From: Escherichia phage vB_EcoS-683R6
Length of the DNA stretch: 55,739 bases
Direction: 5' to 3' (one strand)
Sequence record: ON470595
Made by a program: the position numbers and the translations under genes
Shown here: positions 2,097-48,081 of the stretch, piece after piece
Numbering within the stretch: the stretch's first letter is position 1
Layout: each line of letters starts with the position of its first letter
The notes under the pieces: model-generated
Databases searched by the model: none
What the model was told of the DNA's origin: nothing
What the model saw: only the letters and a program-made list of their open reading frames with translations

Positions 2097-3421
2097 CAGA
2101 TACCTCGCGTCCAGGGAAAATTGAGCGCGGTGCGCGCCAGCGTTTCGACGGCAATAGCGAGAACCTGCTCGTCAAAATCGAATTTTTCGTTGTGATGACC
2201 TGCCGCCAGCTGTGTGCCAAACACCACGTAGGAGGCTTGCCCTTGATGTTGCTGCACGCGGGCCATCATTAATGTGGCATCTTCGGAACCCGCAGGCGCT
2301 TCAACACGTTCAATGGCTTGATTGACCCCCGGGACCTGAGCTGCCTGACTTTGCAACCATGCGACCCATTGCGGCGAAGGAGAACTGGCGGTAGCTGCAC
2401 CCATCAGACGAGTTTCAACGCCGACACCATACATGGTTGCTGCGCCCTGAATCGCTTGTTGTGCACGTTCAAAAACATATTGATTAATGACGTCGCTGGC
2501 CCCGCGTGTTTCCACTTTCAGCAACGCTGAGGCGGGAACAACATTACGACCGCTTCCTGCCTGCATAACGCCCACGTTTACTCTGGAAGCGCCTTCGCTG
2601 TGCGGGGCGATTGCATGCAGTGCAAGAGTTGCTTGTGCTGCCGCCAACAAGGCATTGTGACCGTCTTCTGGTTTTGCGCCTGCGTGAGCGGCGGTCCCGG
2701 TGAAGTGCGCGTCAAATTTGGTGGTTGCCATAAAATTATCACTGCCGCACACCACGGTGCCCGCAGGTATGCCAGTGCCAATGTGCACGGCAGTAAAATA
2801 ATCAACATCATCCACTACACCTGCATCGACCATCGCCCGCGCGCCACGCGTACCTTCTTCTGCAGGTTGAAAAATCAGTTTGATGACGCCATGTAGTCCG
2901 GACTCGAACTGTTTAAGGGTATGCGCCAGCCCAAGTCCAATGGCGGTATGTCCATCATGACCACAGGCATGCATCATTCCGGCGTTACATGACGCAAAAC
3001 CGTCGCGGTAGGGGCGATGGCTGACATCCCGTTCTTCACTGAGATCCAGCGCGTCCATATCGACACGGAAAGCCATCACCGGACCGGGGCGACCGGTATC
3101 CAGGGTAGCGACGATGCCAGTGAAACCGCCTTCAAAAGCCGCAATCCATTGTTCTAGCGCACCCTGTTGACGAGCGCGCTCGAATTCGCGTTGTAGAGTG
3201 AATTCATCAGGTAATCCCATCCGGCTACTTTCATTAACTACTTCGCGGCCCAGCGCCAGTGAATAACCGAGCTGGTGCAATTCTTCCGCAACAAGGGTGG
3301 CAGTGCGGAATTCCACCCAGCCAGACTCTGCATAGTGGTGAAAATCACGTCGCCAGTGCGATAATTTTGGGGCAAGCGAATTAATAAATTGATTCAAAGA
3401 CTCCATAACCTTTCCCGTCAT
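2096..3421 (-). CDS. abgA: p-aminobenzoyl-glutamate hydrolase subunit A (M20 peptidase family)
   Basis: 441-aa ORF; metal-binding HxD/HACGHD-type motifs; position upstream of abgB. Confidence 0.9.
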   Translation of the reverse strand: MTGKVMESLNQFINSLAPKLSHWRRDFHHYAESGWVEFRTATLVAEELHQLGYSLALGREVVNESSRMGLPDEFTLQREFERARQQGALEQWIAAFEGGFTGIVATLDTGRPGPVMAFRVDMDALDLSEERDVSHRPYRDGFASCNAGMMHACGHDGHTAIGLGLAHTLKQFESGLHGVIKLIFQPAEEGTRGARAMVDAGVVDDVDYFTAVHIGTGIPAGTVVCGSDNFMATTKFDAHFTGTAAHAGAKPEDGHNALLAAAQATLALHAIAPHSEGASRVNVGVMQAGSGRNVVPASALLKVETRGASDVINQYVFERAQQAIQGAATMYGVGVETRLMGAATASSPSPQWVAWLQSQAAQVPGVNQAIERVEAPAGSEDATLMMARVQQHQGQASYVVFGTQLAAGHHNEKFDFDEQVLAIAVETLARTALNFPWTRGI

Positions 3422-17123: not shown

Positions 17124-19781
17124 TTGCATATTCCTTAGCCCAGCGGGGCAGTGATAACGTCTTAATAGCTGGCCATTCATCGGTATTGAGGCAGTCAGCC
17201 AGGGTTCGCAGATTGCGGTGATATTCCAGCTGACCTGCTAGTTTTGCTTCTTCGCCCATCATGAAAATTTCAACCGGATAACGTCCGCATTCAATAGTTG
17301 TGCTGGCAACCAGAAAAACGAAAGTTGGCTGCACTCCAAACTGTGCTTCATAACCGTCACTGTAGAATGCATCCTGAACGTGATAGCGGTAGTCGTAATA
17401 AGCGGTTTTGAATCGTTGAATATCCGCCGTAGTTTTCACGTCCATGATCCAGTGAAATTCAGGGATAATTTTGTCCGGACGGCACCGACACAAAATTCCT
17501 GTTTCAGGATCTTCCCAGTAAATTGATGATTCAGCGTGTCCGGCGCTTTCAACAAGCCATTGCCCCAGCGGCAAAGCCATAACGCTTTGATACATCAGTT
17601 CAATTTTCCGGCCTTCTTCCGCAGTGATAACCATTTTTCCTGTGCTTGCGCATTCCATCAGAAACGCTTTCTCTTCTTCTTTTCCGGCGTTTGTACGGCG
17701 GTTAAATTCAGGTGCTACGATAAAGCGGTTACTGAATTCTTCCGGTTCAAGTACCCGGCAGTGGAAAGCGGTTCCTAAATCGAGCGTTTTTGTCTTTGTG
17801 GTGTCCACGGGGGCATTTTTACGCCACAAATACAGTGCCGGAGTATCAGCAATGTCATCGAGCTGAGACTTACTGACACCGGGACCTGCGTGGTAATTCT
17901 CATTCGAAATTCCGTAATAAATACCTGGCTCTATGTCTTCTACGATTACGGGATCTGCGACTTCGCCAGTTTCATCACTGCAATCGCGATGCGGATCGCT
18001 GCCAGCATTCTCATTGTGCGGATGTTCAGCGCCTTCCATTTCCTCCGGATCATTTTCCTTAGCTTCAACCTGATTCTCTTCATCGAATGTTTCCTGGTTT
18101 GTTGCGTCGCCCATCACCGCACCACAGTCAGGGCAGTTATCCCCGCCAGTCTGGCCGCAGGCATTNNNNNNNNNNNNNNNNNNNNNNNTTCCGGTTCCTG
18201 TTGCACTACTGGCTCAGGTTGTTTCATATCCGGGCTGGTTTTTTCCGTTTCTGGCTGGTTCTGGTACACAGAATCGCGAGTCTGGATCCCCTTAACCCAT
18301 TTCGGATCGTTCGGGTCGCTAATTCCGTCAACAAATTCACCACGTGATGCAGCAAGCAATTTATCGGCATCGACAGGATTTTTTGATGGAATGTTTTTCC
18401 GAGCTTCATGGAGTTCTGCCCGCAGTTCCTGATATTTCGCATCAACAGAATTTACCTGTGACTGAGCATCCAGCGGCTGCGTGTCCTGATGATGTTTAGT
18501 TGCGTCCGGTTCCATTGTTTCAGCCTCTCCCTGTTCATCTGCCGTTGTTCCAGATGGTTGCAGTTTTTCTTCATCATCCTGTTTTCCTTCTTCTGTTACT
18601 CGCTGCGGCATCGGGGCAGAGGAGCGACCGCAGGCAATATCCACGATTTCCGGATCAGGGTTGGCATGATCGGTTTCAGTCAGTACTTTGTTCAGATATG
18701 CAGTGACGTGAGCGGGGATGACCTCGATCCCAATTGGTGCTTCTTTCACGGACGCAACCACGATGGCGCGGGAATAATCCAGCCCGCCAGGCATGGTGAT
18801 GAATTTGTCGCGGAAAACAGAAAAGGGCGGTTTATTTTCAGCGATAATTTCCTCAATGCGTTTAGCGTGTGCCGGATGAAGGTTATAGATGTCCACGTCC
18901 ATTGAACGGGCCAGTACGCCAGTGGCTATATCGCGCGCCAGTGACGTCAGATCGTGGACGAAACCTTCGCCGCGATCTGTGAGGTTCCCGCCGCCAGCAT
19001 TAGCACCGGAAGCCGTGCGAGTGATGCGTGAAACACGATTCCCTTTTCGCCATTCTTTTGTCAGAAGACCGCGATCAATGTGTTCGGTATCCAGCCAGGC
19101 TGAAATGAAATTCTTAAATTCATAGGGCTGATGTTTTTTAGTGATAGAGAAAACTGCCTTAATTGCATCAGTCAGGCGGAGCAGGGCGGCATTATCCAGA
19201 GTTGTCGGTTCTGCCATGCCGCGTATGGCCAACAGCAGATTCTGGACATAGCTGTTTTCCTGATCCATCTCAAGAGCAGTAATGTGTTCGCGTTGTTCTC
19301 GGGTGGCATGATGCAGGTATTTCCGATCCCCGGCCGCATACGTAAAAATGTGCAGAAGACGCTGTGTGAACCGCAAAGTGGCTACAGAGACTTCGCAATC
19401 CTGGCAATCCTCGTGGGCGTCTGCCTGCGCGTTTTCTTCCTGGCCTCCCGCCAGTTCGTTGGTTTCTTGAGCATTATCCTGGTGGTGAACGTCGTCTGGC
19501 GCTGCTCCCGGTTTTAGTTCCCATGTCATGGAGTCTTTGCTGAGTTGATAGCGTTCACTCCAGGTAAAATCGATCTCACCTTCAGGGGGAAGGTCATTAA
19601 CGACAGGAAAATTTGTGGCAACAGCTTTAAAATAGTTGCTCAGTTTTTTACCTGACTTAACGATCAGGTAGTCCAGAGTGGCACAGGTCGATTCAAAATC
19701 GTCGCTTGCCCACAGGACGACGTCAGGTTCACCGGATGATTTTTTCGCTTTCCGTAACAGGAAGAGTGGTTTTGTGCTCAT
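17116..19781 (-). CDS. recE: exodeoxyribonuclease VIII RecE; appears as a 555-aa and a 333-aa ORF joined at an ATGA overlap next to the 23-nt N run (18166-18188)
   Basis: C-terminal 333-aa ORF carries the exonuclease region (..[31 protein letters not shown]..); the acidic N-terminal 555-aa ORF ends 15 codons after the N run; span length is not a multiple of 3. Confidence 0.75.
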
Positions 19782-20624: not shown

Positions 20625-20804
20625 AATTATCTCCATTTTTACAAATGAACTTTGTTGATGCGGTGCCTGGTGCCTCCAGGTGACTGCAACCAGTTAACAA
20701 TTACAGTCGGCTTTCCCACCCAAACCAATAAGGACTAACATGACTTTTAACTGTGCCGCGTGCGCTTAGCCGCATTCACCGCATCACAAAATTCACTTTA
20801 AAAA

Positions 20805-20850
20805 GGGCGGGCATCAGTCGAACTTCAAGAAAAAACTGATGCCGCCAAGA
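20805..20850 (-). terminator. hairpin (GGCGGCATCAGT...ACTGATGCCCGCC) followed by CTTTTT on the reverse strand; possible leftward-operon terminator (tL-like)
   Basis: 12-bp near-perfect inverted repeat with 15-nt loop and downstream U-tract on the minus strand, between ydaF and kilR. Confidence 0.35.
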
Positions 20851-21044
20851 CTACACATAGCAGTGTTGTTATCCACAACCGGAGGCGCACTCCCACCATT
20901 TAAATTTAACAGACAAGACCGACTCTTTATGGATATCGGAAATGCGCCTTCGTGTTGTGCCCGGTTTTATTTCACCACCTCCGGGCTTTGGTGGTTTCTG
21001 CTATACCCCTACAGCGAGAATATTGAATTAATCCAAATAATGGA

Positions 21045-21197
21045 TTAGCAAGTATTTCTGGCAAGCCAGCGACGTGCGCCTGTTTCTGTTTTAAATGTTT
21101 TGCTTTTGGTATACGTCATAGCAGTGAACGTTCCATCTTGGTTAGGGAACACGCCGCACACCATGGATTCGTTATTGCCGAGGTCGATTTTTTGCAT
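21045..21197 (-). CDS. ydaF: small protein YdaF
   Basis: Hand translation: MQKIDLGNNESMVCGVFPNQDGTFTAMTYTKSKTFKTETGARRWLARNTC (50 aa), below the ORF-track cutoff. Confidence 0.6.
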   Translation of the reverse strand: MQKIDLGNNESMVCGVFPNQDGTFTAMTYTKSKTFKTETGARRWLARNTC

Positions 21198-21207
21198 TTT
21201 TCGCACC

Positions 21208-21342
21208 TCACATCTTGTTGTTGCGGATAGAGGCTTCTGCTTGCCAGAGATCCCAGTCGTTGCTACGTAAAGCCTGCACAGCCTGGCTGTAAGTGATACC
21301 GCAACAATCCATCAAATACTGAACTACTTCGTAATGCACCAT
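21208..21342 (-). CDS. ydaG: small protein YdaG
   Basis: Hand translation: MVHYEVVQYLMDCCGITYSQAVQALRSNDWDLWQAEASIRNNKM (44 aa). Confidence 0.55.
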   Translation of the reverse strand: MVHYEVVQYLMDCCGITYSQAVQALRSNDWDLWQAEASIRNNKM

Positions 21343-21504
21343 CTTATCTCTCCCCTTAACGCCGGGTGGCGGAACTAACTGCTGCACTGCAAAATTTGAA
21401 TCCCGCCGTCATGTTCATACGCCTCGGGCTGGCTACTTAACCCCTGACCACTGCCTGGTAACTCGAAGTATTGCCTGGCGTTCTGTGGGGCGGGGTGGGT
21501 GGTA

Positions 21505-21560
21505 TGCTGGAACTATAGGTAATGCCTAATTGATTGTCAATAGGCTATGCCTAATGTTTT
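21505..21560. promoter_or_regulatory. operator-like palindromic repeats (TAGGTAATGCCTAAT / CAATAGGCTATGCCTAATG) downstream of racR; OL-like
   Basis: Shares the ATTAGGC-N-GCCTAAT half-site motif with the racR-ydaS intergenic sites, in inverted orientation. Confidence 0.45.
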
Positions 21561-21650
21561 AAGCGTAACCTAATAGGTGATGGCGACTGGAGAAAGTGAT
21601 GGGGGGGTTAAATAACGGAATCCAGGAGTTTTCCGTCAGACCATATAAGT

Positions 21651-22127
21651 TTAAGTTCCAGTTTTTGTGATGTTCTGGCTTTTCCGTTCAGATTCTAGAG
21701 CTTTCAGATACTTACCCACTTTCATTTCCATCGCTGCTATGTAGGCGCGAACATCGTGGTCAACCCAATCTGGTTCTGTAGCATTTCCAGATAACAGGAA
21801 AGCTACAATCGCTCTTATTTCATCAGAGGCTGCTTGATAAAGGTTGTTTATATCTAAAAGTTCACTTTTTGTATCTGGATTGGTGGGGGTTGGTATGGGG
21901 TATTCGTTAAGCCCCCAATGCTCTGGACCAACAACATCAGCAAAGAAACGCCATAATTCTGGAAGTTTATCTTTACTTATGGAGCCTTTCTTAATCCAGT
22001 CATAGATTGATGGTGGTTGGACTTTGAAGTGGCGTGCGACCTCCGCCTTTGATTTGACGGATCCCGATGCGATTTTTTTGTTAATGGCCTGCTCTATCGC
22101 TCGGCCTAAGTCTTTACCACTAAGCAT
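21651..22127 (-). CDS. racR: prophage repressor RacR (CI-like HTH protein)
   Basis: 158-aa ORF with N-terminal HTH (KSKAEVARHFKVQPPSIYDWIKKG); divergent from ydaS. Confidence 0.85.
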   Translation of the reverse strand: MLSGKDLGRAIEQAINKKIASGSVKSKAEVARHFKVQPPSIYDWIKKGSISKDKLPELWRFFADVVGPEHWGLNEYPIPTPTNPDTKSELLDINNLYQAASDEIRAIVAFLLSGNATEPDWVDHDVRAYIAAMEMKVGKYLKALESERKSQNITKTGT

Positions 22128-22139
22128 TGCTTAATATTC

Positions 22140-22220
22140 TCCTATGCTCATTGCATTAGGCAATCCCTACTCTCATTGTATTAGGCATAGCCTATTGACA
22201 TTTGTATTAGGCGTCGCCTA
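22140..22220. promoter_or_regulatory. racR/ydaS divergent promoter-operator region with three ATTAGGC-containing palindromes (OR-like)
   Basis: CATTAGGCAATCCCTA, ATTAGGCATAGCCTATT and the perfect palindrome ATTAGGCGTCGCCTAAT lie in the 123-bp divergent intergenic region. Confidence 0.55.
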
Positions 22221-22250
22221 ATATCTCTGTGTGTTTTTGGAGTTCATTCG

Positions 22251-22547
22251 ATGAAAAAAGAGAACTATTCATTCAAGCAAGCTTGTGCTGTTGTCGGTGG
22301 GCAAACAGCAATGGCTAGGCTTTTAGGTGTATCACCTCCAAGCGTAAATCAATGGATCAAAGGGGTACGTCAATTGCCTGCCGAGAGATGTCCAGCAATT
22401 GAACGTGCAACAAGAGGTGAGGTGCTGTGCGAAGAACTTCGTCCTGATATTGACTGGTCATATTTACGACGTTCGGCATGTTGTTCGCAGAATATGTCAG
22501 TGAAGCAACTAAATGACAGTAACAAATCCTCATTTGATCATACCTGA
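22251..22547 (+). CDS. ydaS: Cro-like HTH protein YdaS
   Basis: 98-aa ORF MKKENYSFKQACAVVGGQTAMARLLGVSPPSVNQWIKG... (HTH); first gene rightward of the repressor. Confidence 0.85.
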   Translation: MKKENYSFKQACAVVGGQTAMARLLGVSPPSVNQWIKGVRQLPAERCPAIERATRGEVLCEELRPDIDWSYLRRSACCSQNMSVKQLNDSNKSSFDHT

Positions 22548-22569
22548 AACATCAAGAGGCAAATGATTC

Positions 22570-22992
22570 ATGAAAATCAAGCATGAGCACATCGAATCGG
22601 TGTTGTTTGCCCTGGCAGCCGAAAAAGGGCAGGCATGGGTAGCCAATGCAATTACTGAAGAATATCTGCGCCAGGGGGGCGGCGAATTGCCCCTGGTTCC
22701 AGGCAAGGACTGGAACAATCAGCAGAATATCTATCACCGTTGGTTGAAAGGTGAAACGAATGCGCAAAGGGAAAAAATTCAGAAGCTGATCCCAGCAATT
22801 CTGGCAATCCTTCCGCGCGAGCTGCGTCACCGACTCTGCATCTTCGATACCCTGGAACGCCGTGCATTACTGGCGGCGCAGGAAGCGTTAAGTACGGCAA
22901 TTGATGCGCATGATGATGCAGTCCAAGCCGTTTACCGGAAAGCGCATTTCAGCGGCGGCGGGTCTTCCGACGATTCTGTCATTGTTCATTAA
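22570..22992 (+). CDS. ydaT: Rac prophage protein YdaT (CII-position protein; toxic when derepressed)
   Basis: 140-aa ORF matching remembered YdaT length and position. Confidence 0.8.
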   Translation: MKIKHEHIESVLFALAAEKGQAWVANAITEEYLRQGGGELPLVPGKDWNNQQNIYHRWLKGETNAQREKIQKLIPAILAILPRELRHRLCIFDTLERRALLAAQEALSTAIDAHDDAVQAVYRKAHFSGGGSSDDSVIVH

Positions 22993-24637: not shown

Positions 24638-25423
24638 ATGGAGACTGTTTTTGACGCACTGAAAGCAATGGGAAAAGCCACGTCGGTAGAACTGGCTGCG
24701 CGACTTGATATCAGTCGTGAAGAGGTACTGAACNNNNNNNNNNNNNNNNNNNNNNNNNAGCTGTGGGAGCTGAAAAAGGCTGGTTTCGTTGATAAAAGCG
24801 TATACACCTGGCGTGTGGCTGATAACAACGTTCAGCAGGAACAGCCAGAGCAGGCAGAACCGCCGGAAGAAACCACCACGGCAACAGTCGCGAAAATTTC
24901 GGAGTGCGATTTAACTGCGACGATTGAACAACGTGGACCACAAACGGCGGATGAGTTGGCTACATGGTTCGGTACCACATCACGCAAAGTGGCTTCAACG
25001 CTGGCAATGGCAATCAGCAAAGGTCGTCTGATTCGCGTTAATCAGAACGGTAAATTTCGTTACTGCATACCGGGCGATAATTTACCAGCAAAGCCGAAAG
25101 CTGCATCGGTAACGGAAACTGATTTTAAAGCCTTTCCTCAGCCAGCAGATGTTGCGTTACCAGTACAGGAAGCTGCAACACAGGAAGATATTAAAACAGA
25201 AACTGTGGCGGACATTGTGCAGTCGCTGCCATCGTTTACTGAAACGCGAGCTGATGACCTGATTTTGCCATCGCTGCATATGGCAAACCGCGAACTGCGT
25301 CGGGCGAAAAATCATGTCCAGAAGTGGGAGCGAGTCTGCGCCGCGCTGCGGGAGCTGAACAAGCACCGGGATATTGTTCGACAGATTGCTGATTCTTCCC
25401 GCCGTGTTGTATCGGAAAAGTGA
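24638..25423 (+). CDS. ydaW: YdaW-like prophage protein (contains a 25-nt N run at 24734-24758)
   Basis: ORF with GGAGG RBS upstream of ATG 24638; N-terminal winged-helix-like region; reading frame appears preserved across the Ns. Confidence 0.6.
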
Positions 25424-31652: not shown

Positions 31653-31728
<76 letters not shown>

Positions 31729-31731
31729 TAT

Positions 31732-31806
<75 letters not shown>

Positions 31807-33754: not shown

Positions 33755-33891
33755 AATCTTAACTACAATATGATTCATTTTGATGATTGTTTCATAAGGA
33801 ACAGTGAAGTAAGATCTAAGAGGAGTTAAATTTTATACAGTATAATCATAATATTGCAGCAAGGTGGTTATAATTGAAAGAATATTTAGAT

Positions 33892-35349
33892 ATGAATACA
33901 TCTCATGTAAGAGTTGTTACTCATATGTGTGGGTTCCTGGTTTGGCTCTATAGTCTTTCAATGTTGCCACCAATGGTTGTAGCATTGTTTTATAAAGAAA
34001 AAAGCCTGTTCGTTTTCTTTATAACTTTCGTTATATTTTTTTGCATTGGTGGCGGAGCGTGGTATACAACTAAGAAATCTGGCATTCAATTACGTACCCG
34101 TGATGGGTTTATTATAATTGTAATGTTTTGGATTTTGTTTTCTGTTATTAGTGCATTCCCTTTATGGATTGACTCAGAACTTAATTTAACGTTCATTGAT
34201 GCTCTGTTTGAAGGGGTTTCTGGAATAACAACAACAGGAGCAACTGTAATTGATGATGTTAGTTCATTACCTCGGGCATATTTGTACTATCGGTCACAGT
34301 TAAATTTTATAGGTGGTTTAGGAGTTATTGTTCTGGCGGTTGCTGTATTGCCATTATTGGGTATTGGTGGTGCAAAGCTTTATCAGTCAGAAATGCCGGG
34401 GCCATTTAAGGATGACAAACTCACTCCCCGCCTGGCCGATACGTCACGGACACTGTGGATAACTTATTCTTTATTAGGTATTGCTTGTATTGTCTGTTAT
34501 AGACTTGCAGGAATGCCTTTGTTTGATGCTATTTGTCACGGGATTTCCACAGTTTCGCTTGGTGGTTTCTCAACTCATAGCGAGAGTATCGGATATTTTA
34601 ATAACTATTTGGTTGAGCTGGTGGCTGGTTCTTTTTCCCTGCTATCGGCTTTCAACTTCACTCTTTGGTATATTGTTATTAGCAGGAAAACGATAAAACC
34701 TTTAATCAGAGATATTGAACTTCGTTTCTTTCTGTTAATAGCCTTAGGGGTGATCATTGTTACCTCTTTCCAGGTCTGGCATATAGGTATGTATGACTTG
34801 CATGGAAGTTTTATTCATTCGTTTTTTCTTGCCAGCTCCATGCTCACTGATAATGGTTTAGCTACGCAGGATTATGCAAGTTGGCCCACGCACACGATAG
34901 TGTTTTTGCTGTTGTCAAGTTTCTTTGGGGGATGTATAGGTTCAACTTGTGGTGGAATTAAGTCACTTCGATTTCTTATACTTTTCAAACAAAGCAAACA
35001 CGAGATAAATCAGCTTTCTCATCCCAGAGCGTTGTTGAGTGTAAATGTAGGAGGGAAGATAGTTACAGATCGTGTAATGAGGTCTGTATGGAGTTTCTTT
35101 TTTCTTTATACTCTCTTCACGGTGTTTTTTATACTGGTGTTAAATGGTATGGGATATGATTTTCTTACATCATTTGCAACAGTGGCTGCATGTATTAATA
35201 ATATGGGATTAGGTTTTGGGGCTACTGCATCGTCATTCGGAGTGCTTAATGACATTGCAAAATGTTTAATGTGCATAGCTATGATTCTTGGTCGCCTTGA
35301 AATTTATCCTGTTATTATATTGTTTTCAGGTTTTTTTTGGCGCTCCTAA
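33892..35349 (+). CDS. trkG: potassium uptake protein TrkG (TrkH family)
   Basis: MNTSHVRVVTHMCGFLVWLYSLSMLPPMVVALFYKEKSLFVFF... matches remembered TrkG; very AT-rich. Confidence 0.9.
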   Translation: MNTSHVRVVTHMCGFLVWLYSLSMLPPMVVALFYKEKSLFVFFITFVIFFCIGGGAWYTTKKSGIQLRTRDGFIIIVMFWILFSVISAFPLWIDSELNLTFIDALFEGVSGITTTGATVIDDVSSLPRAYLYYRSQLNFIGGLGVIVLAVAVLPLLGIGGAKLYQSEMPGPFKDDKLTPRLADTSRTLWITYSLLGIACIVCYRLAGMPLFDAICHGISTVSLGGFSTHSESIGYFNNYLVELVAGSFSLLSAFNFTLWYIVISRKTIKPLIRDIELRFFLLIALGVIIVTSFQVWHIGMYDLHGSFIHSFFLASSMLTDNGLATQDYASWPTHTIVFLLLSSFFGGCIGSTCGGIKSLRFLILFKQSKHEINQLSHPRALLSVNVGGKIVTDRVMRSVWSFFFLYTLFTVFFILVLNGMGYDFLTSFATVAACINNMGLGFGATASSFGVLNDIAKCLMCIAMILGRLEIYPVIILFSGFFWRS

Positions 35350-35486
35350 TATATGGCTGATTTATAATTGTGAGTTTAATATTATGTTGACTCACTCATT
35401 GATCCAATACCTAACTTTACCAGCAACCCCTCCGTCCCCAGTAGCACTGGCTGCTGGGGTGCGTTTTATTCATAAAGCAAGGCTGT

Positions 35487-36278
35487 ATGAGCGAGAAATT
35501 AAAGATAGTCTATCGCCCATTACAAGAATTGTCACCGTATGCGCACAACGCCAGGACGCACAGCCCTGAGCAGGTGGCACAACTGGTAGAAAGTATTAAG
35601 CAATTCGGCTGGACTAATCCGGTGCTGATTGACGAAAAGGGCGAAATTATTGCGGGTCACGGTCGTGTTATGGCGGCTGAAATGCTCAAAATGGATTCTG
35701 TTCCGGTCATTGTTCTGTCTGGCCTGACGGATGAGCAGAAAAAGGCGTACCGCCTGGCAGATAATCGCCTGCCGATGAATGCTGGCTGGGATGAAGATCT
35801 GTTGCGGATGGAGCTGTCGGACCTAATCAATGCTGATTTTGATGTCTCCCTGACAGGCTTCATCCCGACAGAAATTGATGAACTGTTGACGGATGTTTTG
35901 CCCGGTACAGGAAATGAGGAGGAGCCGTATACGACGAAAATTGATACGCCTGTTTATGAGCCGTCGGGCGGTAAACCGGATATCAGTGAACTGTACGACG
36001 ATACGAAAACTCAGGAGCTGATCAGCCGGATACGTTCGGCGTCCCTTGAGCCTGATATTGAGAAATTCCTCCTGTGTGCGGCAGAACGTCACACGGTGTT
36101 TAATTTCAGCAGAATTGCGGACTATTACGCTCACGCCCCCTCTGAAATTCAGTGTTTTTTCGAGGAGTCGGCGCTGGTGATCATTGATTATCAGCAGGCT
36201 ATTGAAAATGGATTTGTCCGGATGACGCAGCGCATGGTGGAGATCATGCATGGTGGTGAGGAGGAGGAATATGCGTGA
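35487..36278 (+). CDS. ynaK: ParB-like nuclease domain protein (YnaK-like)
   Basis: 263 aa; ParB N-terminal-domain motif (IAGHGRVMAA); acidic C-terminus. Confidence 0.65.
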   Translation: MSEKLKIVYRPLQELSPYAHNARTHSPEQVAQLVESIKQFGWTNPVLIDEKGEIIAGHGRVMAAEMLKMDSVPVIVLSGLTDEQKKAYRLADNRLPMNAGWDEDLLRMELSDLINADFDVSLTGFIPTEIDELLTDVLPGTGNEEEPYTTKIDTPVYEPSGGKPDISELYDDTKTQELISRIRSASLEPDIEKFLLCAAERHTVFNFSRIADYYAHAPSEIQCFFEESALVIIDYQQAIENGFVRMTQRMVEIMHGGEEEEYA

Positions 36279-37203
36279 TGATTTTTGCGCCTTTATTCTG
36301 ACTCACGGGCGACCGGACAAAGTTCTGACTTACCGGACGTTGCGTCGTGCTGGCTATACCGGGAAAATTTTTATCGTTGTTGATGATGAAGATAAGACAC
36401 GGAATCAGTACATGGCTGAATTTGGTGAACAGGTGCTGGTGTTTTCCAAAGCCGATATCGCCAGTCGTTTTGACGAAGCCGATAATTTCTGTGACCGCCG
36501 CTCAATTTTTTACGCCCGTAATGCCTGTTTCGACCTGGCAAAACTGGTCGGGTGTAAATACTTCATTCAGCTCGATGATGATTATCACGAGTTCCAGTTT
36601 CGGGTGGATCGCAACTATGACCAGGCCTATTTTCCGATAAGGAAACTGGATGCGATCCTTTCTGAAATGCTGGCGTACTACGAATCAATACCTGCTCTTT
36701 CCATCGCTATGTCGCAGGGCGGGGATTTTCTTGGTGACAATGGCGGCCATGCTTCGTGGGTGAAACGCAAGGCAATGAACAGCTTTATCTGTTCGGTTGA
36801 TCGACCGTTCTCATTCATGGGGCGCATTAACGAGGATGTGAATACGTACACGAATCTCGGTCGCTGTGGTGAATTGTTTATGACGATCGGTGCTGTCCAG
36901 TTAGGGCAGAAACAGACGCAGAAAAACAGCGGCGGAATGACCGAGCTGTATCTGGATTCCGGAACCTACGTTAAAAGTTTTTACTCCGTCATGTATGCGC
37001 CGTCGTGCGTAAAAATCTCACTGATGGGTGCCAGCCATAAACGCATTCACCATCAGGTCACCTGGAACAACGCTGCAGTAAAAATCCTTCACGAAAAATA
37101 CAGGAAGAAGACACCCTGCATATCAATGGGGGTGACAAATGATTCCGTATTCGAAAGTCGAGTCTCTGGCAGCGTGCCGGATGACTGCACAACAAATCGC
37201 TGA
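36271..37203 (+). CDS. hypothetical prophage protein at the YdaY position; possible nucleotide-sugar-transferase-like fold (speculative)
   Basis: Strong RBS GAGGAGGAGGAA before ATG 36271; acidic DxD-like motif (IQLDDDYHEF); no firm family assignment. Confidence 0.5.
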   Translation: MRDDFCAFILTHGRPDKVLTYRTLRRAGYTGKIFIVVDDEDKTRNQYMAEFGEQVLVFSKADIASRFDEADNFCDRRSIFYARNACFDLAKLVGCKYFIQLDDDYHEFQFRVDRNYDQAYFPIRKLDAILSEMLAYYESIPALSIAMSQGGDFLGDNGGHASWVKRKAMNSFICSVDRPFSFMGRINEDVNTYTNLGRCGELFMTIGAVQLGQKQTQKNSGGMTELYLDSGTYVKSFYSVMYAPSCVKISLMGASHKRIHHQVTWNNAAVKILHEKYRKKTPCISMGVTNDSVFESRVSGSVPDDCTTNR

Positions 37204-37390
37204 CGTTCTGGATGTTGATCTGAACCGACTGAAAGAAAATCGGGAAGCAATGACAGATTTTTATGCGGCCATCCGTAAGGGCAGAGCGAAAGGTGAAGCC
37301 GAGTTACGAGCGGCATTGTTTAAGCTTGCCAGAAAAGGGGATGCCTTTGCTCTGCGCGAACTACTCAGGGTGGATAAAAATCAGGACTAA
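37139..37390 (+). CDS. small phage protein upstream of terminase (83 aa)
   Basis: ORF with helical/HTH-like character; function not assigned. Confidence 0.4.
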   Translation: MIPYSKVESLAACRMTAQQIADVLDVDLNRLKENREAMTDFYAAIRKGRAKGEAELRAALFKLARKGDAFALRELLRVDKNQD

Positions 37391-37393
37391 CTG

Positions 37394-38488
37394 ATGAGCA
37401 GACCGGACTGGGGGGCGTTGCAGCAGGAGTATATTGCTGAATACACCCGCTCCGGTATATCTCCGGTGGCATGGTGTGAAGCAAGGGGACTGAATTACGC
37501 AACAGCCCGTCGTTACATCAAAAAAACTCCGAAAAATGCGCAGACAGAAATGTGCAAAACTGCGCAAAAAAGTGCGCAGAAAAAATCTGCGCAGACTGCA
37601 CAAAAGCGGAACGAAAAATCTCAGGAAAAAAAGCCAGTATTCGATGCGGGCCTGAATGAGGGCGACGCGGAGGAATTTTCGTTCTGTCCCGATGAATTCG
37701 GCATTTCTGACCAGCAGGCTAAGTTTGCGATGCTTGTTGCTCAGGGTAAAAAGCCGACAGAGGCGTACCGACTAGCCGGTTATGAGGGGCAAGGTGCGAC
37801 AGCTAACAGCAACGCCAGTCGTATGCTTAGAAATGCCAGGGTTTTTCGCGCTATCAGCTACTTCCGCAATCAGTACCAGAAACGCTATACCGCAGACCTG
37901 GATTTACTAGTGAGTCAGTTGATGGCTATTGTCCTGGCCGACCCCAATCAGCTTGCACAATTTCGCCGTGTTAACTGCCGTTATTGCTGGGGCGAGAATC
38001 ATCTCTACCAGTGGCGCGATATAGCAGAATTCGACAAGGCAGCGGCGCAGGCTTCCAGAGATGGCAAACCCGAACCGGAATATGGAGGCCTCGGCTTTGT
38101 TGATAACGCCATACCCAATCCGGACTGCCCGAAGTGCTGCGGTGAGGGAACGGGACAGCTTTATATGGCTGATACCACTCTGCTTGATGGGGATGCGCGG
38201 CAATTATATGCAGGGGCAAAATTCGGAAAATTCGGCGTTGAGATCCTGCTGGAGGATAAGGCTGCCGCCCGGCGTGAATTGTTGCGTTTGCTTTCTGCTG
38301 GCGGGGATTTATGTGCAGATAAGCGGCTACAGGAACTGGAAATTGAACGGCGCAGAATGGAAAACCAGAAGCTGCGCAAAGAGATCGAAACGGTGGAAGA
38401 TAATGAACATCCCCAGCCTGTGGCGATCAATATTAATGTGGTTGATGCCAGAGTAAGGAGTGATGAAGATGATCTCTCCGACGCTTAA
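37394..38488 (+). CDS. putative terminase small subunit (DNA-recognition component)
   Basis: 364 aa; N-terminal HTH-like region; precedes and overlaps the large terminase gene. Confidence 0.55.
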   Translation: MSRPDWGALQQEYIAEYTRSGISPVAWCEARGLNYATARRYIKKTPKNAQTEMCKTAQKSAQKKSAQTAQKRNEKSQEKKPVFDAGLNEGDAEEFSFCPDEFGISDQQAKFAMLVAQGKKPTEAYRLAGYEGQGATANSNASRMLRNARVFRAISYFRNQYQKRYTADLDLLVSQLMAIVLADPNQLAQFRRVNCRYCWGENHLYQWRDIAEFDKAAAQASRDGKPEPEYGGLGFVDNAIPNPDCPKCCGEGTGQLYMADTTLLDGDARQLYAGAKFGKFGVEILLEDKAAARRELLRLLSAGGDLCADKRLQELEIERRRMENQKLRKEIETVEDNEHPQPVAININVVDARVRSDEDDLSDA

Positions 38489-39770
38489 TGTGCCTCAGGC
38501 GCGATTTCTTTCAATGCCCCATAAATTTAAAGCCTATATTGCTGGTTTTGGCTCGGGCAAAACATGGGTTGGGTGTGGCGGCATATGCAAGGGGATTTGG
38601 GAGCATCCAGGTATAAATCAGGGATATTTTGCGCCAACGTATCCCCAAATTCGCGATATTTTTTACCCTACAGTGGAAGAAGTTGCTGCTGACTGGGGAT
38701 TGAACGTAAAAATTAATGAGGGAAATAAAGAGGTTCACTTTTATTACGGACGCCAGTATCGGGGAACCACTATCTGCAGATCGATGGAGAAGCCACAAAC
38801 GATCGTCGGTTTCAAAATTGGTAATGCGTTGGTGGATGAACTGGACATTTTGCCGAAGGAAAAAGCCAGAACGGCGTGGCGCAAGATAATTGCGCGTATG
38901 CGTTATAAGATTGATGGACTTCGCAACGGTATTGACGTTACAACCACGCCGGAAGGATTCAAATTTGTCTACGAGCAGTTTGTTAAAGCCGTGCGTGAAA
39001 AAACAGAGCTGGCCTCACTGTATGGTCTGGTGCAGGCATCTACTTTCGATAATGAAAAGAACCTGCCAGCAGATTACATTCCTTCGCTTCTTGAATCATA
39101 CCCTCCAGAGCTGATTAAAGCCTATCTGCGAGGACAGTTTACTAACCTGACAAGTGGTACTGTTTACCATCAGTTTGACCGGAAACTGAATAATTGCGAA
39201 GAAGTGGAGCAGCCAGGGGAGCCGATTTATATTGGGATGGATTTTAACGTTGGAAAGATGGCGGGAATCGTCCATGTGCTGCGTTTGGGGCTTCCATGTG
39301 CGGTAACTGAAATCATCAATGCCTACGATACGCCGGATATGATCCGCATCATTAAAGAACGCTTCTGGCTGTATGATGGGAATGATTACCGGAAAGTGAG
39401 GGAAATTTATATTTATCCAGATGCTTCCGGGGATTCCAGAAAATCAAGTAACGCAAGTACGACGGATATAGCCCAGCTTAAGCAGGCTGGTTTTAACGTT
39501 GTGGTGAACAGCTCGAACCCGCCAGTAAAAGATCGCGTTAACTCAATGAATGCAATGTTCTGCAATGCCAATGGTGAGCGTCGCTATAAAGTTAATGTGA
39601 AGCGTTGCCCGTTATATGCCGAATCTCTGGAGCAACAGGTCTGGGATGAGAAGGGGGAGCCTGATAAAAAATCTGGCAATGATCACCCGAATGATGCCGG
39701 AGGTTATTTCATCGTTAAGCAATTCCCTATTGTCAAACCGACCGGAAGAGTCACATCACTTCGGATTTAA
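38460..39770 (+). CDS. terminase large subunit (ATPase/nuclease)
   Basis: 436 aa; Walker A-like AGFGSGKT near the N-terminus; position before the portal gene. Confidence 0.8.
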   Translation: MMKMISPTLNVPQARFLSMPHKFKAYIAGFGSGKTWVGCGGICKGIWEHPGINQGYFAPTYPQIRDIFYPTVEEVAADWGLNVKINEGNKEVHFYYGRQYRGTTICRSMEKPQTIVGFKIGNALVDELDILPKEKARTAWRKIIARMRYKIDGLRNGIDVTTTPEGFKFVYEQFVKAVREKTELASLYGLVQASTFDNEKNLPADYIPSLLESYPPELIKAYLRGQFTNLTSGTVYHQFDRKLNNCEEVEQPGEPIYIGMDFNVGKMAGIVHVLRLGLPCAVTEIINAYDTPDMIRIIKERFWLYDGNDYRKVREIYIYPDASGDSRKSSNASTTDIAQLKQAGFNVVVNSSNPPVKDRVNSMNAMFCNANGERRYKVNVKRCPLYAESLEQQVWDEKGEPDKKSGNDHPNDAGGYFIVKQFPIVKPTGRVTSLRI

Positions 39771-39772
39771 TT

Positions 39773-41179
39773 ATGGCTGATATATCAACACCCAACCTCG
39801 ACTATAACGATATGCTGGAGGCGTGGGATATTAACGACGCACTGATGGGCGGTACGCTTGAAATGCGCAGGCAGGGGGAAAATTATCTCCCAAAATGGCC
39901 TAACGAAGATGAAGACGCTTATAAAAAACGCCTGTCTGTGGCTACGCTACTTCCTGTGTATGAAGAAAGCATCAAGCAAAATATTGGGCGCATATTTGCA
40001 GAGCCGACAGTATTGAGTGAGGAAACGCCGGCAAAAATCAGGGAATATGCAGAAAATATCGACATGGAGGGAAGCCGACTGGATGTGTGGGCGCAGCAAT
40101 TTTTCAGCCTCGCATTTCAGTATGGTGTGGCACATGCGCTGGTGGACTATCCACGAACGGATATGAAAGAGATTCGGACAAAAGCCGATGAAAACGCGGC
40201 CGGTAGTCGTCCGTACGTTACGATGCTGAATCCACGCCAGGTTATTGGATGGAAATCGAAAGTTGAAAAAGGGAAAGTTGTTCTCACTGATTTGCGTATA
40301 AAAGAGGTCATCATTATTGATGGTGATGATTTCGGGCAGAAGAAGGTGGAGCAGATCCGCCATATTATGCCCCGTCGAGTTGAAATTTATCGACGTAGCG
40401 AAGGCACTAATGGCGAATCTGTCTGGACGCTTCATGAGTCATGGAATACCAGCCGTGATGATATTCCTCTGGTAACACTGTACACGAAGAAAACAGGATT
40501 TATGCGTGGTACACCGCCATTGCTTAATCTTGGCTTGCTGAATATCAAGCACTGGCAAAGCCAGAGCGAGCAGGACAATATTCTTCATGTTGCCCGCGTT
40601 CCATTGCTGGTGGCCTACGGGCTGGACAGGAATGAAGAACTGACGGTTGGTGCATCCACCGCTACGATTTTTGAGGACAGAACAAAAAATGGCCTCGAAT
40701 ATGTTGAACATAGTGGCGCAGCGATAGAATCTGGCGAAACATCACTTGAGAAGCTGGAAAATCAGATGCGTCATGCCGGCGCTAAACTTCTGCGTGCTGA
40801 AAATACATCCACCAAATCTGTTGATCAGACTAATGAAGAGCGAATGCAGGAAAACTCGCCGCTTTATACAATGGCGAACTCCCTCGAAGATGCCCTCGAT
40901 AATATTCTCCAGATAATGGCGGAATGGATCGGAGAGAGTTGCGGTGGCAATGTGGATGTGCGCACTGAACTGGATGTATCTGCCCAGGTGTTTGACTCAT
41001 CCTCCGCGCTGGCTGTTCAGTCATTGCGTCAGGGCGGTGATATACGTCAGATTGATGCGATTCGGGTGTTGCAGGCGTTGAAATTTATCGATCAGGATTC
41101 CCGTCCAGAGGAAGTGATCGATGAATTAAAAAATCAGAGTGTAATGCTGATGGAAATCAATGATGCAAACCGTGAATGA
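39773..41179 (+). CDS. portal protein
   Basis: 468 aa ORF between terminase and head-morphogenesis genes. Confidence 0.7.
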   Translation: MADISTPNLDYNDMLEAWDINDALMGGTLEMRRQGENYLPKWPNEDEDAYKKRLSVATLLPVYEESIKQNIGRIFAEPTVLSEETPAKIREYAENIDMEGSRLDVWAQQFFSLAFQYGVAHALVDYPRTDMKEIRTKADENAAGSRPYVTMLNPRQVIGWKSKVEKGKVVLTDLRIKEVIIIDGDDFGQKKVEQIRHIMPRRVEIYRRSEGTNGESVWTLHESWNTSRDDIPLVTLYTKKTGFMRGTPPLLNLGLLNIKHWQSQSEQDNILHVARVPLLVAYGLDRNEELTVGASTATIFEDRTKNGLEYVEHSGAAIESGETSLEKLENQMRHAGAKLLRAENTSTKSVDQTNEERMQENSPLYTMANSLEDALDNILQIMAEWIGESCGGNVDVRTELDVSAQVFDSSSALAVQSLRQGGDIRQIDAIRVLQALKFIDQDSRPEEVIDELKNQSVMLMEINDANRE

Positions 41180-42275
41180 ACGGCTGCGTGATGAATCAAT
41201 TGCTCATGCAGTCTGGATATCCCGCTATAGCACTGGCGTGGCTGCCAGAATGGTGAAAATACTGAATGACAGCGATGCGGAACTTACTGCTCGCCTGCTG
41301 ATAGCACTGGACAGCCTCGATCCAGGTAGTTTTACCGTTAAGCGCCTGGAGTCACTTCTGGCGAGCGTCAGAGAGGTTAACCGCACTGCTATTAACAGCA
41401 TGTTTACCAGTCTCTCCGGAGAGCTGAACGAGCTGGCAATTTATGAGGCTGGTTATCAGTTAAGTCTGTTTGATTCTATGCTACCTGATTTTGTTGCTGA
41501 TGTTCACCCTCTGGTTGGTATCTCTCCTGATGCACTTTATGCCGCTGCAATGGCGCGACCATTTCAGGGACGACTGCTCAGTGAGTGGGCCTCAGATCTT
41601 GAGGCGGATCGGCTCAGACGCATAACAAATACAGTGCGTCAGGGTTTTTTGCTGGGGGATACCAATGAGCAGATCGCAAGAAAAATTCGGGGACATGTCA
41701 GTAAGGGATTTCAGGATGGTGCATTGCAGATGAGCCGGGCTAATGCGGCCAGCATTGCAAAAACAGCGGTTGGACATCTTGCTGCTACTGCCCGTGAGAG
41801 TTTTGCCAGCGCGAATAATGATTTGATTAAGGGTAAGCAATGGTTATCAACGCTTGATAATCGTACTACGCCACAATGTCGAATCAGGGATCGCCTCAAA
41901 TATACGCTGAATAATAAACCTGTAGGTCACAGCGTGCCTTATTTGCAGGGGCCGGGAAAAATTCATTTCTGCTGCCGCTCAACGGAAACGTTCATTCTGA
42001 AATCAGCGAAGGAACTGGGTATTGATGTTCGCGATATTTCCCCGGCTGAGCGGGCCAGCATGGATGGCGTGGTGGCCGGAGATACAACCTACAGGGAATG
42101 GTTTTTGCGTCAGCCTTACACCAGACAAAAACAGATTGTGGGGGAAACCCGAGCAAAGCTGATTCGGGATGGTGGTATGTCGCCAGATGAATTTTACACC
42201 GATAAAGGCGAATGGCTGACGCTGAAGCAGCTCCGTGAGCGTGATGCACAGGTATTCAGAAAAGCAGGGATTTAA
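41160..42275 (+). CDS. head morphogenesis protein (Mu F / SPP1 gp7-like)
   Basis: 371 aa; position after the portal gene; overlapping start. Confidence 0.65.
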   Translation: MMQTVNERLRDESIAHAVWISRYSTGVAARMVKILNDSDAELTARLLIALDSLDPGSFTVKRLESLLASVREVNRTAINSMFTSLSGELNELAIYEAGYQLSLFDSMLPDFVADVHPLVGISPDALYAAAMARPFQGRLLSEWASDLEADRLRRITNTVRQGFLLGDTNEQIARKIRGHVSKGFQDGALQMSRANAASIAKTAVGHLAATARESFASANNDLIKGKQWLSTLDNRTTPQCRIRDRLKYTLNNKPVGHSVPYLQGPGKIHFCCRSTETFILKSAKELGIDVRDISPAERASMDGVVAGDTTYREWFLRQPYTRQKQIVGETRAKLIRDGGMSPDEFYTDKGEWLTLKQLRERDAQVFRKAGI

Positions 42276-42294
42276 ATAAATCATTTATTACAAC

Positions 42295-42320
42295 AGGCTA
42301 CCTTCGGGTGGCCTTTTTTA
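42295..42320 (+). terminator. UUCG-tetraloop hairpin plus T6 between head-morphogenesis and scaffold genes
   Basis: AGGCTACC-TTCG-GGTGGCCT followed by TTTTTT. Confidence 0.5.
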
Positions 42321-42379
42321 TTGCTGCGATCCGGATGGTGAGCAGCGTAACTGTCGGAAGACTTAAACCAGGTACTAAT

Positions 42380-43144
42380 ATGAAACTGAAAACGGTCGAG
42401 ATTAACGGAAAACAATACGCAGAAATTGATACTGCTGGCCTGCCAGTTTATGTGCACGACGATGGTAAAGAAATTGGCTTCGATGCACCGCTGGCGACAA
42501 AAAAAATTACAGAGCTTAATAGCGAGGCAAAAAATCATCGCCTGGCTAAAGAAGCTGCAGAGGAAAAACTGGCTAAGTTTGCCGCTATCGAAGACCCGAA
42601 GAAGGCGATCGAGGCACTGGAAATGCTGTCAAAAATCGACCAGAAAAAGCTGCTCGATGCGGGACAGGTTGACCAGGTTAAGGCAGAAATTACGAAAAAT
42701 TTTCAGCAGCAATTAGATGAAGAAAAGCAACGCTCTCAGATGCTGGAGAAGCAGCTTTACGATTCTATGATTGGCGGTAGTTTTGCGGGTTCAAAATATA
42801 TTGCCGATAAAATTGCGATCCCGGCAGATTTATTACAATCACGCTTCGGGCAGGCATTCAAAGTGGAAGAAGGGAGGATCGTTGCTTATGACGCTTCCGG
42901 CAACAAAATTTATTCCCGCGCGAAGCCTGGCGAACTGGCGCAGTTTGATGAGGCGCTGGAGTTCCTTGTCGAAAATTACCCTCAGAAAGACTACATCCTG
43001 AAAGCCAGTGGCAACAATGGCGGCGGCTCCCGTCCGACACAGCATGATATTGGTCAGAAAACGATGAAACGCTCTGCTTTTGATGCACTGGATGTTGCAG
43101 GTAAGCAAAACGCATTGAAAGACGGTATCACAATCGTTGATTAA
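42380..43144 (+). CDS. putative scaffold protein
   Basis: About 254 aa from ATG 42380; charged, coiled-coil-like; directly upstream of the major capsid gene. Confidence 0.55.
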   Translation: MKLKTVEINGKQYAEIDTAGLPVYVHDDGKEIGFDAPLATKKITELNSEAKNHRLAKEAAEEKLAKFAAIEDPKKAIEALEMLSKIDQKKLLDAGQVDQVKAEITKNFQQQLDEEKQRSQMLEKQLYDSMIGGSFAGSKYIADKIAIPADLLQSRFGQAFKVEEGRIVAYDASGNKIYSRAKPGELAQFDEALEFLVENYPQKDYILKASGNNGGGSRPTQHDIGQKTMKRSAFDALDVAGKQNALKDGITIVD

Positions 43145-43242
43145 CACATTTGTCAGCTTCCGGATGGGAGCTGGTGTCAGGGCTGGATAGCTCATTACTC
43201 CATCTATTCACAATTACGCAAATTTTTAAGGAATATTTAATT

Positions 43243-44382: not shown

Positions 44383-44392
44383 ACATTCAAAC

Positions 44393-44413
44393 GGGGCTTC
44401 GGCCCCATTTTTA
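44393..44413 (+). terminator. UUCG-tetraloop hairpin plus T-tract after the capsid gene
   Basis: GGGGC-TTCG-GCCCC followed by ATTTTTA. Confidence 0.55.
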
Positions 44414-44423
44414 ATGGGGGGCA

Positions 44424-44600
44424 TATGGCCGGATTAACTAAAGAGCAAAGAGCACAGCGTGAAGCCGCACAAAAAACGCAAATTGAGTTAGTGGTTATGG
44501 TGACCGATTATCAGATGTTTCCCGGCGCACCAACTATCGCTAATGTTCATCCTGATGAAGTTGACAACTGGAAGGCTATGGGCTGGAAAACTCAGGAGTA
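44424..44600 (+). CDS. small phage protein (58 aa)
   Basis: Hand translation: MAGLTKEQRAQREAAQKTQIELVVMVTDYQMFPGAPTIANVHPDEVDNWKAMGWKTQE; fills the gap between the capsid gene and the next ORF. Confidence 0.4.
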
Positions 44601-44604
44601 ACAC

Positions 44605-46153: not shown

Positions 46154-46179
46154 CGCAATTAATGACATAGGAGGCTTCT

Positions 46180-47142: not shown

Positions 47143-47190
47143 TTTTCCGTTATTCCCCCTGTGGTACTGCACTACAGGGGGACGCATTGA

Positions 47191-47960: not shown

Positions 47961-48081
47961 TTGTTAATTACGTACACTCTGTTACAGAGATGTGATGGTG
48001 TCTTTAATTAAATCGATGATGCTCCTGGAGAAAAGCATTGCGTGGCCTCGTAATCGCTATATCTACTATTATGTCGCCTGA

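Follow-up and report, generated by a model that had tools for sequence, protein, structure and literature searches.

Two clusters of the RacR operator motif flank racR in a Rac-type prophage of E. coli, the left one as a putative operator

The racR gene is flanked on both sides by clusters of one inverted-repeat motif. The two clusters very probably represent the OR and the putative OL of an immunity region of the lambda type, with RacR acting at both. The right cluster, in the spacer between racR and ydaS, is the already published RacR operator, and nothing in this half is new. The left cluster lies downstream of racR and is a putative RacR operator that would occlude a predicted leftward early promoter; this reading is supported by the sequence, by comparison with other genera and by published transcriptomes. 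An earlier note on this DNA had likened the layout to two operator clusters flanking a CI-like repressor gene. The likeness is supported by a predicted left promoter, by a weight matrix trained on the right-hand sites, by conservation and by published transcriptomics.

The region around racR in the window (the whole 55.7-kb stretch of DNA analyzed) is identified as a Rac-type prophage of E. coli. Many E. coli chromosomes match positions 21300–22600 with 100% identity and have racR, ydaS and ydaT there by RefSeq annotation, and this 1.3-kb segment is found at ≥80% in 1085 of 5426 complete genomes. Comparison with Rac of K-12 MG1655 shows 22 differing positions across an 881-bp aligned stretch (21380–22260). 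To the left of racR, minus-strand open reading frames run from position 21387 down to 14330 (integrase), with ydaG followed by ydaF, kilR, recE, recT and int. The coordinates of the features are given in Table 1.

Table 1. Genes, promoters, operator sites and hairpin in the racR region (positions in the window; mismatches are to ATTAGGCNNNGCCTAAT)
Feature	Sequence	Position	Strand	Description and basis
ydaG		21208..21342	-	ORF and K-12 annotation; first gene after the predicted leftward promoter
Predicted leftward early promoter (PL analogue)	TTGACA (21540..21535), 17-nt spacer, TATAGT (21517..21512)	21512..21540	-	predicted from promoter hexamers
Left cluster		21514–21574	.	two good sites and one weak site
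OL1-like site	TATAGGTAATGCCTAAT	21514..21530	.	3 mismatches; covers spacer and -10 of the leftward promoter
OL2-like site	AATAGGCTATGCCTAAT	21539..21555	.	1 mismatch; adjoins and overlaps -35 of the leftward promoter
OL3-like site (possible, weak)	TTTAAGCGTAACCTAAT	21558..21574	.	3 mismatches; 10.9 bits, third-best non-training match
Candidate racR terminator hairpin		21613..21638	-	just after the racR stop; 8-pair stem followed by UAUUU; MFE and centroid folds
racR		21651..22127	-	ORF, 158-aa repressor, between the two clusters; RefSeq 'DNA-binding transcriptional repressor RacR'
Right cluster		22119–22222	.	four sites; the published RacR operator
O3	ACTAAGCATTGCTTAAT	22119..22135	.	over the racR start codon (CAT 22125–22127); motif match and PMC9638921
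Right-hand site	ATTAGGCAATCCCTACT	22155..22171	.	2 mismatches; in 25-nt direct repeat; among the 'four inverted repeats' of later papers
O2	ATTAGGCATAGCCTATT	22180..22196	.	1 mismatch; adjoins PydaS -35; arm of 21-nt inverted repeat
PydaS (PR analogue)	TTGACA, 18-nt spacer, TAATAT	22195..22224	+	promoter scan 10/12
O1	ATTAGGCGTCGCCTAAT	22206..22222	.	0 mismatches, perfect palindrome; between and over PydaS -35/-10
ydaS		22251..22547	+	ORF, Cro-type, divergent from racR; Pfam YdaS_toxin 2.9e-31, P22_Cro 3.6e-09

Distribution of the motif around racR

The heptamer GCCTAAT/ATTAGGC occurs six times in the window, where 6.97 copies are expected by chance. All six copies are located within positions 21524–21555 and 22155–22222, on both sides of racR, and the probability that six random positions fall within 698 bp is P ~2e-9. 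The shorter TTAGGC/GCCTAA is found nine times, and seven of these are in the segment 21500–22230, where 0.12 are expected. A search with the 17-mer ATTAGGCNNNGCCTAAT, with up to three mismatches allowed, yields eight matches in the window compared with 1.96 expected; seven of the eight are the left-hand (21514, 21539, 21558) and right-hand (22119, 22155, 22180, 22206) sites. The densest 100-bp span has four matches and the densest 750-bp span has seven, whereas the maximum in 500 dinucleotide-preserving shuffles is two. The proposal of the earlier note that racR is bracketed by copies of an operator motif is borne out by these counts, i.e., by all six heptamers and seven of the eight near-matches. 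A similar half-site frequency elsewhere in the window, which that note had named as the outcome that would speak against it, is clearly absent.

The two clusters are approximately 640–690 bp apart. They share a perfect 21-nt inverted repeat (positions 21535–21555 and 22180–22200), the arms of which are on either side of racR and separated by 624 nt. A weight matrix was trained only on the four right-hand sites and then scored over the 55.7-kb window. The best three non-training positions are 21539 (23.4 bits), 21514 (13.7 bits) and 21558, i.e., the three sites of the left cluster, and the next best score is 9.1 bits. The shuffles, together with the recovery of the left sites by the right-trained matrix, exclude a chance origin of the clustering. 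One outlying match at 25940 (three mismatches, 9.1 bits) is isolated and was taken as a chance occurrence.

The strings that were originally quoted are located at 21516–21530 (TAGGTAATGCCTAAT), 21538–21556 (CAATAGGCTATGCCTAATG) and 22206–22222 (ATTAGGCGTCGCCTAAT). A similar pair of palindromes had been described about 100 bp past the 3' end of racR, and it is present there, with the left pair ending 96 nt beyond the racR stop codon. The description of the intergenic region as having three palindromes, one of them perfect, holds for the strings themselves but is incomplete, as a fourth site lies over the racR start codon. The perfect palindrome ATTAGGCGTCGCCTAAT is found in the window but extends 2 nt beyond the end that was described for it, and its K-12 form, GTTAGGCGTCGCCTAAT, is symmetric over 15 nt only.

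The right cluster and the putative left operator

The right cluster has been characterized in detail by others. Krishnamurthi et al. 2017 (PMC5700373) described three GCCTAA/TTAGGC repeats in the 123-bp spacer and found that RacR binds the spacer (EMSA, ChIP-qPCR) and represses a ydaS promoter fusion. Wisniewska et al. 2022 (PMC9638921) mapped PydaS by primer extension and -10 mutagenesis and reported three racR promoters. DNase I footprints in the same work led to an ATTAGGC monomer site and to operators O1–O3 of the form (T/A)TAGGC-n3-GCCTA(T/A). O1 coincides with the ydaST promoter, in the region that is protected at the lowest RacR concentration, and O3, given as 5'-ACTAAGCATTGCTTAATATTCTC-3', is over the racR ATG. 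The binding substrates spanned -186 to +85 around the racR start codon, i.e., the region upstream of racR; the right-hand site at 22180 is inside the intergenic region that was footprinted with RacR. Later papers (PMC11014345 and likewise PMC11879457) refer to four inverted repeats in the racR-ydaS spacer and to an octameric RacR, the octamer being determined by size-exclusion chromatography in PMC11014345. The right-hand site at 22155 lies within a 25-nt direct repeat (22141–22165 and 22166–22190). The suggestion that the intergenic palindromes are RacR binding sites is therefore confirmed for the right cluster by published EMSA, ChIP-qPCR and DNase I footprinting. A comparison of the spacer with that of K-12 shows substitutions at 11 of 123 positions, none of them in a core hexamer (P = 0.008).

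As in lambdoid immunity regions, the repressor gene is divergent from a cro-type gene and the multi-site spacer between them overlaps a promoter. The RacR protein shows only a weak match, to HTH_17, in Pfam. There is no Pfam match to Peptidase_S24, the autocleavage domain of lambda CI and LexA-type repressors. RacR is CI-like in action, yet it is outside the S24 repressor family.

On the left side, a second cluster of the same motif overlaps a predicted early promoter that is directed away from the repressor gene. The minus-strand sequence of this cluster reads ATTAGGCATAGCCTA-TTGACA-ATCA-ATTAGGCATTACC-TATAGT. The predicted promoter matches the sigma-70 consensus at 11 of 12 positions and is the best match in 21000–22700; the mapped PydaS matches at 10 of 12. 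The predicted start is near position 21505, which corresponds to K-12 coordinate 1,419,619 on the minus strand. One copy of the motif adjoins the -35 hexamer and shares its first two bases, and the other occupies the spacer and extends over the -10 hexamer. PydaS with O2 and O1 shows this arrangement in mirrored form, and the left promoter faces away from racR, toward ydaG-ydaF-kilR-recET-xis-int.

The left sites fit the same consensus as the published operators O1–O3, although to different degrees. The OL2-like site fits in full; it is the exact reverse complement of the right-hand O2, is part of the 21-nt inverted repeat and is unchanged in K-12. The OL1-like site has one core mismatch (TAGGT where the consensus has TAGGC). 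It is the second-best non-training matrix match in the window and is also unchanged in K-12. The OL3-like site fits in one half only, and one of its core bases differs in K-12 (21561 A>G). Confidence in this third site is low because it has no clear counterpart in the other genera compared.

Leftward expression, relatives in other genera and alternative readings

Published transcriptomes show the genes to the left of racR to be under RacR control. On RacR depletion, RNA-seq revealed increases of 40- to 70-fold for ydaG, ydaF, ydaE, kilR and racC, and of about 100-fold for xisR and intR; recET is likewise derepressed. In a 2026 CRISPRi preprint, Cascade was positioned at +3 or +58 of racR and the racR transcript was reduced 20- or 11-fold, yet ydaG, kilR, recET, xisR and intR were derepressed despite the Cascade block in racR. 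Read-through from the racR promoters is thus ruled out as the source of the leftward transcripts. What is required is a separate leftward promoter that lies beyond the block and is repressed by RacR, and the predicted promoter fits this position. A published sieB-ydaU deletion, in which racR and the predicted leftward promoter are lost and kilR is retained, is viable, in agreement with a kilR promoter inside the deleted segment. The leftward derepression could be partly indirect, through YdaS/YdaT, prophage excision or lost Rho termination.

Rho and NusG have been reported to silence kil via a terminator inside racR. This raises the alternative that the leftward genes are silenced chiefly by Rho/NusG, while the left sites serve mainly for YdaS/YdaT, as a loop anchor or as a roadblock. 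The predicted leftward transcript begins with 40 C-rich nt (19 C, 5 G) that resemble a Rho loading site, a property that is not kept in the other genera compared, and PaaR2 and YdaS both act at the PL of prophage CP-933P. We consider this alternative improbable. The left sites match the footprint-defined RacR motif and are positioned exactly on the -35 and -10 hexamers, the classic geometry of promoter occlusion, and the leftward genes rise as RacR falls even with transcription through racR blocked. The other roles are compatible with RacR repression and not mutually exclusive with it, and Rho/NusG termination is compatible with an additional layer of silencing alongside a RacR-repressed promoter.

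Repression of a left promoter by RacR is further supported by relatives in other genera. The RacR protein was scanned against one genome per species. Relatives with 56–75% identity were found in Mixta, Morganella, Klebsiella, Proteus, Pigmentiphaga and Achromobacter, and the upstream operator cluster is present in all of them. Two motif copies exactly 25 bp apart are found downstream of the repressor gene in Mixta, Morganella, Proteus, Pigmentiphaga and Achromobacter, and E. ruysiae and E. coli also have a 25-bp-spaced site pair on a promoter downstream of racR. The left layout in the relatives is site-TTGACA-8 nt-site-TAATAT, directed away from the repressor gene; the -10 hexamer is TAATAT in most relatives and TACTAT in Achromobacter, compared with TATAGT in E. 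coli. The isolated Klebsiella phage KpF5 has the same pair with TAATAT approximately 1.4 kb past the repressor gene, and an inserted DUF450 gene and a terminator are located in between. Two Pseudomonas phages have a diverged left pair 2.2–2.7 kb past the repressor gene; in the other relatives the left module is from about 65 nt to about 1.4 kb past it. In the Klebsiella sp. R390 locus the right-hand sites are present, but the 2.5 kb examined contain no left pair.

An alignment of seven left regions shows that only the half-sites and the promoter hexamers are invariant and that the flanks are unalignable. The OL2 core, TAGGC...GCCTATTGAC, is invariant over seven loci from six genera, and an equivalent of OL1 is found 25 bp from OL2 in seven distant loci. 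A change of operator specificity that covaries at both clusters was not found in these relatives, and ATTAGGC-type half-sites are kept down to approximately 50% N-terminal identity. The Pseudomonas phages have AGCTAAT-type right halves on both sides, which is only a hint of covarying specificity. In the Pigmentiphaga repressor the first 77 residues are 75% identical to RacR and are combined with a Peptidase_S24 domain (E=3.7e-15), with the same operators. A classical CI-type repressor is thus served by the same DNA-binding module and operator layout. Together, the RacR-type DNA-binding domain and its operator/promoter module represent a portable unit in prophages and phages of several genera, which pairs with either a RacR-type or an S24-type C-terminal domain.

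These comparisons bear on whether the left cluster is a non-functional relic, i.e., a part of the right operator that was copied through recombination or gene conversion while the prophage decayed. In its favor, Rac is cryptic in K-12, and the perfect identity of the 21-nt arm to the right-hand site would be expected if the copying were recent. However, other genera and an isolated phage also have the module, although its flanks are unrelated, its spacer bases differ and its distance from the repressor gene varies, and it is always accompanied by an outward promoter. The left and right sites of the relatives differ in detail yet conform to the consensus, a pattern that points to selection and not to a recent copy. 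As the leftward genes are also under RacR control, a relic is very unlikely.

It is more unlikely still that the palindromes downstream of racR represent RNA hairpins that terminate or stabilize the racR transcript. The racR 3' region folds somewhat better than shuffled sequences (z = -2.6), and a terminator scan flags a 5-pair stem at 21541–21553, but this stem is on the plus strand, opposite racR. On the racR strand, the operator palindromes form A/T-rich stems of 5–7 pairs with 3-nt loops and are not followed by a U-run, and they do not have the form of an intrinsic terminator. A better hairpin with UAUUU is located nearer the stop codon (Table 1); the strict terminator scan did not pick it up. 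The left palindromes were accordingly rejected as the racR terminator, and the hairpin reading leaves the identical motif upstream of racR and the promoter hexamers unexplained. Rfam gave no match in or near the region. That the perfect 21-nt arms around a single gene are the terminal repeats of a small mobile cassette carrying racR can be dismissed, as the arms are found nowhere else in the window and each holds a promoter -35 and a repressor site, the left module in relatives is as far as 2.7 kb away and separated by other genes, and the K-12 arms already differ by one base.

Proposed mechanism and comparison with known immunity regions

A mechanism can be proposed in which RacR acts at both clusters. 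RacR dimers on the four right-hand inverted repeats shut PydaS and regulate the promoters of racR itself; this right part is experimentally established in the literature. On the left sites RacR would block RNA polymerase at the leftward promoter, and this would silence the early operon ydaG-ydaF-kilR-ydaE-racC-recE-recT-ralR-xis-int. The Cro analogue YdaS probably acts at these sites too, as has been shown for the related prophage CP-933P. Since RacR forms an octamer and the clusters are ~640–690 bp apart, bridging of OL and OR may occur: one octamer, or paired tetramers, may join the two, with a loop that encloses only racR, as with lambda CI. We infer such looping by analogy with lambda CI and with PaaR2 of CP-933P. 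For the authors of PMC11014345 the four right-hand repeats suffice to explain the RacR octamer, and the data can therefore be accounted for without looping. The complete model, i.e., a loop of ~650 bp around racR together with direct repression of the left promoter that keeps kilR, recET, ralR, xis and int silent, is put forward as a tentative one, for which the odds may be somewhat unfavorable. If it is true, the loop would be much tighter than that of lambda, and the control by RacR of excision genes 6–7 kb away would be explained. The model would then also offer a candidate location for the classical sbcA point mutations that switch on recE.

Recent work on Rac presents RacR as the repressor of ydaS-ydaT. 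The control of the distant kilR, recET, xisR and intR has been noted without a mechanism, and the silencing of kilR has been assigned to Rho/NusG. There is no mention of sites downstream of racR, of a leftward promoter or of looping in PMC5700373, PMC9638921, PMC11014345 and PMC11879457, or in the Jobling letter and its reply, the KilR, LysN and Rho papers and the 2026 CRISPRi preprint. Genome-wide data on RacR binding were not found in the literature search. In the papers searched the left cluster is apparently undescribed; the older literature on Rac immunity, kil and sbcA may contain an earlier description. A RacR-controlled leftward promoter would connect RacR directly with kilR, recET and xis-int, a link that has been missing, and would complete the lambda-like wiring of the most widespread cryptic prophage of E. 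coli. The RacR octamer could then also be interpreted as a bridge between OL and OR. The exact sites and K-12 coordinates given here allow simple tests. A left half is an expected feature of a lambdoid immunity region and textbook biology, and the gain is a modest one, in completeness and not in concept.

Rac is like lambda OL/OR in several respects. The repressor gene and a cro-type gene diverge from an operator of several sites, and the motif recurs past the repressor operon in a second cluster, on an early promoter that is directed leftward and is a predicted one in Rac. Sites lie over the -35 and -10 hexamers, the repressor is octameric and the racR transcript is leaderless like that of cI. 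There are also differences. The Rac motif, ATTAGGC-N3-GCCTAAT, is unrelated to that of lambda, and RacR lacks the Peptidase_S24 autocleavage domain and has a C-terminal fold unlike that of CI. Rac has four right-hand sites and two good left-hand sites. The distance from OL to OR is ~0.65 kb in Rac compared with ~2.3 kb in lambda, and the enclosed DNA in Rac is the repressor gene only. In addition, YdaS is reported not to repress racR (PMC9638921).

Prophage CP-933P of E. coli O157:H7 (PMC8630535) has a Rac-like immunity region with ydaS-ydaT and an octameric repressor, PaaR2, that also lacks S24. Its operators are located in the intergenic region (PR933P/PRM933P), with a second set, OL1-3, on PL933P, and the -35 and -10 hexamers of PL match those of PR. 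In reporter assays PL is repressed by both PaaR2 and YdaS (PMC8630535). CP-933P differs from Rac in its operator consensus, which consists of GTTTAGTAA palindromes, and in the paaA2-parE2 toxin-antitoxin pair that lies between the repressor gene and PL. The left operator of CP-933P has been tested experimentally, whereas that of Rac is predicted from sequence. The layout in Rac would work like lambda OL/OR, and its closest known counterpart is the one in CP-933P.

Operator number and divergence in the racR-ydaS spacer

The Rac prophages of E. coli and E. ruysiae carry four operators on the right-hand side, between racR and the divergent ydaS gene, at spacings of 26, 25 and 36 bp, whereas the RacR-type loci of other genera carry three at spacings of 25 and 35 bp. 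The window also has a direct repeat of 25 nt units (76% identity) in this region, and one operator unit is carried with it. From the repeat, and from the presence of four sites versus three in other genera, the extra operator unit in Rac seems to have been acquired by tandem duplication. Divergence from E. coli K-12 is 8.9% in the racR-ydaS spacer, 1.3% in racR and 1.9% in the ydaG-racR spacer. The substitutions in the racR-ydaS spacer are located between the operator cores.

Coordinates of features in the window
Feature	Position	Strand
McaS sRNA gene	4497	
FnrS sRNA gene	11459	
RalA sRNA gene	15886	
N runs	18166-18188, 24734-24758, 52790-52846, 53706-53715	
kilR-ydaF interval	20636-21045	
Leader, initial 40 nt of predicted leftward transcript	21466-21505	minus
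Hairpin then UAUUU (candidate racR terminator)	21613-21638	minus
racR	21651-22127	minus
racR-ydaS spacer	22128-22250	
Direct repeat	22141-22165 / 22166-22190	
tRNA genes	31653-31803	
Series of large ORFs	33874-50622	plus

RacR relatives at other loci

The repressor encoded at positions 2501-3406 of the Pigmentiphaga daeguensis locus (L010) is 301 aa in length; residues 1–77 are 75% identical to RacR and are fused to a Peptidase_S24 domain. It is a domain-swapped RacR relative. ATTAGGC operators are present on each side of the gene, as in Rac, and the left pair is separated from it by approximately 1.2 kb of other ORFs. A further racR locus, 99% identical to that of E. coli Rac, is on a 5.2-kb contig (JARKOR010000130.1) labeled as a 'Candidatus Nanosynbacter' metagenome-assembled genome; this contig is most likely mis-binned E. 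coli sequence.

The racR 3' side and the predicted leftward leader

The hairpin is 13 nt past the racR stop codon, between racR and the left operator, and represents a candidate terminator of racR. The leader is strongly C-rich, with 19 C and 5 G, and in composition resembles a Rho loading site, a possible link to the reported Rho/NusG silencing of kilR. Conservation of the C-rich leader was examined in other genera and was not found.

Content of the prophage

The window is broken up by four short N runs (115 bases in total), one of them within recE and one directly past ydaV. In K-12, the DNA between kilR and ydaF contains sieB, on the plus strand, together with the gene for the kilS sRNA. 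The interval in the window is only about 400 bp and has a single plus-strand ORF of 69 aa, thus sieB appears to be truncated or absent. A pair of adjacent tRNA genes is located downstream of the replication genes, as is a long series of large plus-strand ORFs. With these, the Rac-type prophage of the window, which may be intact, is much fuller than the 23-kb Rac remnant of K-12.
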